Part shown: piece after piece, positions 26,794 through 27,050 of the stretch | How the letters are laid out: each line of letters starts with the position of its first letter | How positions within the stretch are numbered: the stretch's first letter is position 1 | Origin: Escherichia coli | GTDB taxonomy: Bacteria > Pseudomonadota > Gammaproteobacteria > Enterobacterales > Enterobacteriaceae | NCBI RefSeq assembly: GCF_048403405.1 | Contig: NZ_CP183129.1 | Length of the DNA: 64,000 bases | Strand: one strand, 5' to 3' | The notes under the pieces: generated by a model | Databases searched by the model: none | What the model was told of the DNA's origin: nothing | What the model saw: only the letters and a program-made list of their open reading frames with translations | Translations under genes and position numbers: made by a program

Positions 26794-26850
26794 TCTAAAA
26801 TCCTCGGAGATGTGATCTGCCCGGCATTAAACCGCACAGATATAAAAGTG

Positions 26851-26876
26851 AAAAAGGGGGCCATATGCAGGCCCCC
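26851..26876 (-). terminator. Attenuator/terminator hairpin between rpsB and tsf
   Basis: Minus-strand perfect stem gggggcc-tgcatat-ggccccc followed by ttttt within the rpsB-tsf spacer. Confidence 0.65.
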
Positions 26877-27050
26877 TAACCAAACGTGTACTACCTGGTC
26901 TATAAGGGCTCTCCCCCTTCATATTTCGCGCCGCAGATGCGTTGTCTTCGCTCGCTCATCCCGGTCACTTACTGATGTAAGCTCCCGGGAATTCTCGAGC
27001 TTGCCGCCTTTCTGCAACTCGAACTATTTTGGGGGAGTTATCAAGCCTTA

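Follow-up and report, generated by a model that had tools for sequence, protein, structure and literature searches.

A probable leaky intrinsic terminator in the rpsB-tsf spacer of Escherichia coli and an ERIC repeat inserted upstream of it

The spacer between rpsB and tsf in Escherichia coli carries, with a probability that we put at about 0.88, a leaky intrinsic terminator of ancestral origin to which an ERIC repeat was later added as a passenger. The locus was analyzed in a stretch of 64,000 nucleotides of E. coli DNA, referred to here as the window, and positions are those of the window unless K-12 is named. RNA polymerase starting at the rpsB promoter copies rpsB, the 127-nt ERIC, a hairpin termed H2, and then the terminator hairpin, H3, followed by only five U residues. 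A fraction of the transcripts stop at position 26850 and yield a monocistronic rpsB mRNA, and the remaining transcripts run on through a leader of about 60 nt, containing hairpin H4 and the Shine-Dalgarno sequence, into tsf. Because part of the transcripts end at the hairpin, tsf mRNA is expected to be held at a fixed fraction of rpsB mRNA. H3 and its neighbors H1 and H2 are ancestral in Gammaproteobacteria, and ERIC entered the apex of H1 at a later time. Partial termination at this hairpin is already published, and the corresponding 3′ end is present in two public data sets.

The locus has the E. coli gene order map / tff-rpsB-tsf / pyrH, in which the minus strand encodes rpsB, tsf and pyrH, and the names rpsB and tsf are those of the RefSeq annotation at matching loci. 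The coding sequence of rpsB (27776..27051, minus strand), which specifies ribosomal protein S2, was identified from its open reading frame and translation; it ends in the tandem stop codons TAATAA, and its product shares 97–98% identity with S2 of other Enterobacteriaceae. The coding sequence of tsf, for elongation factor Ts (26793..25942, minus strand), was assigned from its open reading frame and from the tsf gene in matching annotated loci. The intercistronic spacer between them (27050..26794, minus strand) is the long, ERIC-bearing allele and measures exactly 257 nt. It is 100% identical to the spacer of many RefSeq E. coli genomes and differs from that of K-12 MG1655 (190600..190856) at one of 257 bases. 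The strain itself is not K-12, with nine differences from K-12 across 1,835 nt of rpsB-tsf. Upstream of rpsB, the t44/tff RNA (Rfam RF00127, 83.5 bits), an S2-responsive rpsB leader, was detected at 27804..27890 (minus strand). Seven of seven other loci scanned, as far as Aeromonas and Shewanella, likewise have a member of this family ahead of rpsB. A G/C hairpin in the tsf-pyrH spacer (25912..25929) coincides with the known tsf terminator (K-12 TTS center 191729, window 25921), past which some transcripts continue into pyrH-frr.

The minimum free energy (MFE) of the whole spacer was −108.1 kcal/mol, with a z-score of −7.0 against shuffled sequences, and none of 200 shuffles folded equally well. 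A preliminary description of this DNA, made from the sequence alone, had called the spacer structured and 257 nt long, and in both respects it was correct, with exact coordinates. It had also placed the hairpin first and about 170 nt of structured tsf leader after it; on the coding strand this order is reversed. The terminator hairpin starts 173 nt past the rpsB stop and ends about 60 nt ahead of the tsf ATG, so the long structured stretch lies upstream of the hairpin and not between the hairpin and tsf. ERIC makes up most of these 173 nt. The sole real structured leader of tsf is H4 (26841..26815, minus strand), a hairpin between the attenuator and the tsf Shine-Dalgarno sequence that was present in both MFE and centroid folds; equivalents of differing sequence were seen in Enterobacter, Klebsiella, Superficieibacter, Yersinia and Photorhabdus. 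The Shine-Dalgarno sequence GAGGA (26805..26801) and the ATG (26793..26791), both on the minus strand, lie in a stretch (26791..26805) that is unchanged in four aligned E. coli spacers (the window, E2865, O145 and ST80), and the remaining Enterobacterales spacers compared also have the core CGAGGA upstream of tsf. Two small open reading frames occur on the minus strand of the spacer (26919..27017, 32 amino acids, and 26827..26922, 31 amino acids). By inspection both begin within ERIC and would therefore be missing from the short allele described below, and no Shine-Dalgarno sequence was seen upstream of either one on inspection.

The terminator scan and the folds agreed on the attenuator hairpin H3, AGGGGGCC-UGCAUAU-GGCCCCCU (26877..26855, minus strand). 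In DNA form, AGGGGGCC-TGCATAT-GGCCCCCU, it extends with the five U residues over 26877..26851 of the minus, coding strand. The stem consists of seven perfect G/C pairs, or eight pairs if the closing A-U is counted, and the loop has 7 nt; TTTTTCACTTTT follows, so that the whole site covers 26877..26844. H3 has a predicted ΔG of −17.6 kcal/mol, and no other terminator-like site in the 2.5 kb scanned was as strong. Its pair probabilities were 0.98–1.0 in the nascent and in the full spacer RNA, for the long and the short alleles alike. Read on the other strand, the stem runs into TAACCAAAC, which contains no T-run. The perfect GC-rich hairpin with a T-run that had been reported at 26851..26876 is thus present, at 26877..26851, and is the best in the scan. 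No antiterminator pairing that competes with H3 was found in the MFE or centroid folds of the spacer. Since H3 is predicted to form with a probability of about 1.0 and no structure competes with it, the attenuator looks constitutive rather than switchable in these folds, and a protein-dependent effect on it may still exist. Directly 3′ of the stem lies an interrupted U-tract, UUUUUCACUUUU (26855..26844, minus strand). It is probably because this tract is short and interrupted (UUUUUCAC) that the terminator is leaky. In an E. coli ST80 short allele (L002:1485-1621) the attenuator is variant, with a G-run of four instead of five, a C-run of six, and a T-run of nine instead of five; it could be a stronger terminator.

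Published transcript data, all of them from K-12 and hence from the long allele, bear directly on this site. Term-seq recovered an RNA 3′ end at K-12 position 190800 in two conditions (PMC7815308), with the flanking sequence ...GGCCCCCTTTTTC. This position corresponds to 26850 of the window, the C directly after the five U residues. The same end appears in SMRT-Cappable-seq as the TTS of a transcript running from TSS 189712 to TTS 190800 (PMC6131387). Two nanopore studies describe the rpsB-tsf unit as “terminated step-wise”, and a review from 2024 covers the operon and its autoregulation by S2 and uses “att” for attenuators in the legend of its operon map (PMC10931766). The estimates of how much transcription stops here are in conflict, at about 67% by northern blotting and about 20% by SMRT-Cappable-seq in M9. 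The former follows from roughly one third readthrough at the attenuator, as given by Le Derout et al. (2010; PMC2834685). The latter comes from 1,340 reads beginning at TSS 189712, of which 232 stop at the TTS and 906 continue beyond it (PMC6131387); this figure is too low for termination, because size selection restricted the library to molecules over 1 kb and the rpsB RNA that ends at the hairpin measures 1,089 nt. The preliminary description had proposed that partial termination tunes the S2 to EF-Ts ratio within the operon, and its core, an attenuator that lowers tsf transcription relative to rpsB, matches the northern, Term-seq and SMRT-Cappable-seq results. It had named uniform transcript coverage of the spacer, with no 3′ ends at the hairpin, as the observation that would speak against this proposal; published data place an end at 26850, and the proposal survives.

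The attenuator in the window shows no substantive difference from the rpsB-tsf attenuator of K-12 (Aseev et al. 2008, RNA 14:1882; PMC2834685). Locus, hairpin and U-run are identical, the mapped 3′ end is shared, and partial termination gives rise to rpsB and rpsB-tsf mRNAs. It also resembles the internal partial terminators of ribosomal and translation operons, such as those with step-wise termination in long-read transcriptomes, in which a leaky intrinsic terminator likewise reduces expression of the distal gene, although the spacer has no evident regulated antiterminator or ligand-sensing alternative structure.

To place the hairpin in its evolutionary setting, ERIC-less spacers were folded individually, and they showed three successive hairpins, H1, H2 and H3. 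H1 begins at the rpsB stop codons (AUAAGG...CCUUAU) and has a variable upper stem; its base pairs GGCU/AGCC are kept around ERIC in the long allele. H2, GACCAGG...UUUGGUU (26878..26900, minus strand), was recognized from the folds and from the comparison of spacers, and is kept as ACCA...UGGU in Enterobacterales, Aeromonas and Shewanella. The terminator core GGGGCC/GGCCCC is common to Enterobacterales, Pasteurellales, Aeromonas, Vibrionaceae and Shewanella. The core together with its context, CCCTTATT(A/G)ACCA...TGGTTAG, was found in Yersinia, Photorhabdus, Aeromonas and Shewanella, and partially in Pasteurellaceae and Vibrionaceae. Among the matches listed, 23 of 30 gammaproteobacterial rpsB-tsf spacers had a terminator-like hairpin. 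The structural conservation of H1, H2 and H4 was judged by inspection of the folds of each sequence and not by a statistical test. These individual folds were used instead of an alignment because the variable G-runs were put out of register by MAFFT, and H3 was only partly recovered with RNAalifold.

The repeat that separates the two ends of H1 in the window is an ERIC/IRU element, an imperfect palindrome of 127 nt (27037..26911, minus strand) that sits in the apex of the ancestral hairpin. Members of the family are about 127 bp long with a 7-bp terminal inverted repeat (PMC2229807), and have TA termini, a target duplication and a transcript that forms a long stem-loop (PMC2229807, PMC3184786). 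The copy in the spacer shares with the ERIC/IRU/RU-1 family (Sharples & Lloyd 1990; Hulton et al. 1991) its length, the 7-bp repeat and the primer core, and it is likewise intergenic, co-transcribed, able to form a long imperfect stem-loop, and one of many dispersed copies. Its terminal inverted repeat, CTCCCCC (27037..27031) and GGGGGAG (26917..26911), is exact over 7 bp and sits in 27-nt arms that are 74% complementary; folded alone, the element reached −65.2 kcal/mol. The central core was located with the ERIC-PCR primers, whose sequences were taken as quoted in 233 papers. ERIC2 (26974..26953, minus strand) and ERIC1R (26975..26996, plus strand) each had one match with three mismatches, and the two sites abut at 26974/26975 and face outward; the numbers of matches expected by chance were 0.00 and 0.01.

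The ERIC segment is a dispersed repeat: E. coli genomes carry it at a median of 11 places (range 2–18). Five other copies were compared, four between the annotated genes yjbE-yjbF, hsdM-hsdR, mobH-ardC and ybhJ-ybhI and one at a site downstream of a DUF4123 gene, which had no further annotated gene in the stretch covered; all five align with the spacer copy across the whole unit. The spacer copy differs from the others at its termini, which read ACTCCCCC...GGGGGAG in place of TATACCC...GGGTATA. A TA is found 1 nt outside the left end (GATAACTCCCCC), and the right end has none (GGGGGAGAGCCC). Comparison of the empty with the filled site showed 10 nt (ACGCTCGTAC) replaced by about 133 nt, and no clean TA duplication. 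In a search of Rfam, the region 26915..27038 (minus strand) also matched the Vibrio RNA AS5 (V_AS5) at 24 bits and E = 0.04, below the gathering threshold of 96; this match is weak and constitutes no evidence alone, and it may reflect ERIC-like repeats in Vibrio.

The left arm of ERIC contains the segment aagctcccgggaattctcgagctt (26979..27002), which bears natural SmaI, EcoRI and XhoI sites and had been described as a compact palindrome. The segment is present, but it is not a single palindrome, as only 7 of 12 Watson-Crick pairs would form. Rather, several short palindromes follow one another in it (AGCT, CCCGGG, GAATTC, CTCGAG and AGCT), and in the predicted RNA fold it pairs with the right arm of ERIC and not with itself. 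The other ERIC copies have AAGCGAGTGAATCCCCGGGAGCTT at the same place, and four substitutions give the EcoRI and XhoI sites in the spacer copy. Read by eye as AGCT-CCCGGG-AATTC-TCGAG-CT, the segment looks like a linker in a HindIII site, and we considered whether it might be a synthetic polylinker scar in an engineered strain. This candidate was rejected and has practically no probability. The spacer, which is present in 4,094 genomes, is 100% identical in natural isolates from cattle, pig, human and wastewater; identity of the segment in wild isolates means that it is no cloning scar. K-12 MG1655 carries the segment as well, and in a gap-free alignment it departs from the consensus of the other ERIC copies at four positions only.

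The spacer occurs in two alleles. The locus was present in 5,424 complete E. coli genomes, of which 4,094 (75%) had the 257-nt spacer and 1,330 (25%) an ERIC-less spacer of 134 nt. The short allele has ACGCTCGTAC where the long one has about 133 nt (27044..26912), and from GAGCCCTTATAG onward the two alleles share their content, including the hairpin. Among the matches listed, the spacers of other Enterobacterales measured 116–149 nt and lacked ERIC, and the ERIC core was found in the rpsB-tsf spacer of none of 30 other gammaproteobacterial species, few of them close relatives of E. coli. Enterobacter and Klebsiella have TAAGGCACGCTCGCTAGAGCCC, which is nearly the same as TAAGGCACGCTCGTACGAGCCC of the short E. 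coli allele. This resemblance and the absence of ERIC in all 30 species indicate that the short allele is ancestral and that the ERIC insertion is, on this comparison of spacers, the derived state.

Several further observations were made on the distribution of the element. Three of the 5,424 spacer matches were on records labeled as plasmids, which are probably mislabeled or chromosome-derived replicons. The number of ERIC places per genome appeared to fall into two classes, of about 2–5 and 9–16, with two different ERIC queries, and the short-allele genomes listed were all in the low-copy class. The copy in yjbE-yjbF (L004:398-524) reached an identity of at least 99% in no more than 374 genomes, which shows that other loci, too, are polymorphic for the presence of ERIC.

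The 3′ part of the spacer also coincides with a described small RNA. The Rfam family CssrA (RF02798) matched 26965..26856 (minus strand) over the full length of the model with 136.6 bits, against a gathering threshold of 93, and the match spans the right arm of ERIC, H2 and the attenuator hairpin. ERIC-less spacers scored only 29–54 bits against the same model, which limits the family to the long allele. CssrA derives from a northern band of about 110 nt in S. flexneri 301; its 3′ end was taken from a predicted terminator, and its 5′ end was obtained by subtracting the size of the band and was never mapped (PMC3071730, Peng et al. 2011). In the window, the attenuator hairpin lies at this 3′ end. 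Most likely, the CssrA of about 110 nt is a 3′-terminal fragment of the terminated rpsB mRNA, reaching from the right arm of ERIC to the 3′ end of the attenuator; we therefore read it as part of that mRNA, whereas PMC3071730 presents it as a separate gene. Table 1 of that paper gives map and rpsB as the neighbors of cssrA, yet the Rfam model matches the rpsB-tsf spacer, and the sources appear inconsistent on this point.

The separate-gene view would make CssrA an independent small RNA with its own promoter in ERIC, for which the hairpin serves mainly as the terminator. The strength of the RF02798 match (136.6 bits) and the description of the S. flexneri band with an initiation site of its own (PMC3071730) are in line with this view. 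SMRT-Cappable-seq moreover reported minor TSSs within the spacer, at K-12 190705 and 190794, for tsf-pyrH-frr variants (PMC6131387); they correspond to window 26945, in the right arm of ERIC, and to 26856, on the 3′ side of the terminator stem, and 190705 lies 96 nt upstream of the 3′ end at 190800. These minor starts imply that some transcription of tsf, and perhaps of CssrA, may not depend on the rpsB promoter. However, the published 5′ end was calculated from the size of the band and not mapped, our scan found no sigma-70-like promoter in 25700..28200, and the −10 sequence of 190705 (GAGCGA) is by eye unlike TATAAT. Abundant rpsB transcripts share the same 3′ end. The hairpin is furthermore kept in ERIC-less species and strains that score under the CssrA threshold, and its conservation without ERIC or CssrA indicates that the function of the hairpin is older than any such small RNA. 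For these reasons we find an independent CssrA gene improbable.

A different objection concerns the 3′ end itself. If the hairpin were a 3′ stabilizer or a barrier to processing, the ends at 26850 would arise by exonuclease trimming of a cleaved bicistronic RNA. Mapping of 3′ ends alone cannot distinguish termination from trimming, and many reads pass the site. On the other hand, the end is found at the canonical spot, directly after the U-run of a strong G/C stem, and the architecture of hairpin and U-run is kept in 23 of the 30 spacers. The SMRT-Cappable-seq reads represent full-length capped primary transcripts and are stacked at one position, and the literature treats the site as an attenuator (PMC2834685). 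Trimming is accordingly a very improbable source of these ends.

The role of ERIC leaves more room for debate. The predicted folds keep ERIC paired within itself and H3 intact, and on this basis the repeat is most likely a passenger within the 3′ UTR of rpsB mRNA that ends at the attenuator. It might instead be a working regulatory part that alters the stability of this mRNA, for instance if it uncovered or masked a site for RNase E, or the efficiency of the attenuator, and its presence, which moves the rpsB stop from about 50 to 173 nt upstream of the hairpin, could be a means to this. As summarized in PMC2229807 and PMC3184786, ERIC elements in Yersinia mRNAs alter or destabilize upstream transcripts in an orientation-dependent manner (De Gregorio 2005), which offers a precedent. 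In addition, the insertion is inside H1, the hairpin that holds the rpsB stop codons and is kept as far as Shewanella; both alleles are common, at 75% and 25%; and repression by S2 is reported to reduce the level of the bicistronic mRNA because transcription and translation become uncoupled (PMC10931766). Against a regulatory role, H3 is predicted to form equally in both alleles, and ERIC folds on itself at −65 kcal/mol while the base of H1 is kept. Both alleles also persist in an essential gene pair, which argues against a large effect of ERIC. We regard a regulatory role for ERIC as possible but unlikely. A related proposal looks to the ancestral structures and treats H1-H2-H3 as a cis-regulatory unit in which the efficiency of the attenuator depends on termination of rpsB translation or on a bound protein, for which S2 is a candidate. 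The sequence of this module is kept from E. coli to Shewanella and Aeromonas, and no Rfam family represents it in ERIC-less species. We offer this proposal tentatively and consider it unlikely to hold.

The corrected map shows that half of the spacer is an ERIC repeat rather than a dedicated leader. With ancestral partial termination and a passenger ERIC as our preferred reading, what interest remains lies in a possible effect of ERIC, or of the conserved H1-H2 context, on termination or on the fate of the mRNA. If H1-H3 were a regulatory unit, it would be naturally perturbed in the 75% of E. coli with ERIC in H1, and the outcome would be either a changed balance of S2 to EF-Ts or a lineage-specific RNA from the 3′ UTR, namely CssrA. 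If ERIC itself were regulatory, E. coli lineages with and without the repeat would differ in their S2:EF-Ts balance. The clean split between ERIC-plus and ERIC-minus lineages is a natural experiment on a 3′ UTR repeat in the mRNA of an essential ribosomal protein, and it could reveal an effect of ERIC on termination, on mRNA stability or on the S2:EF-Ts ratio.
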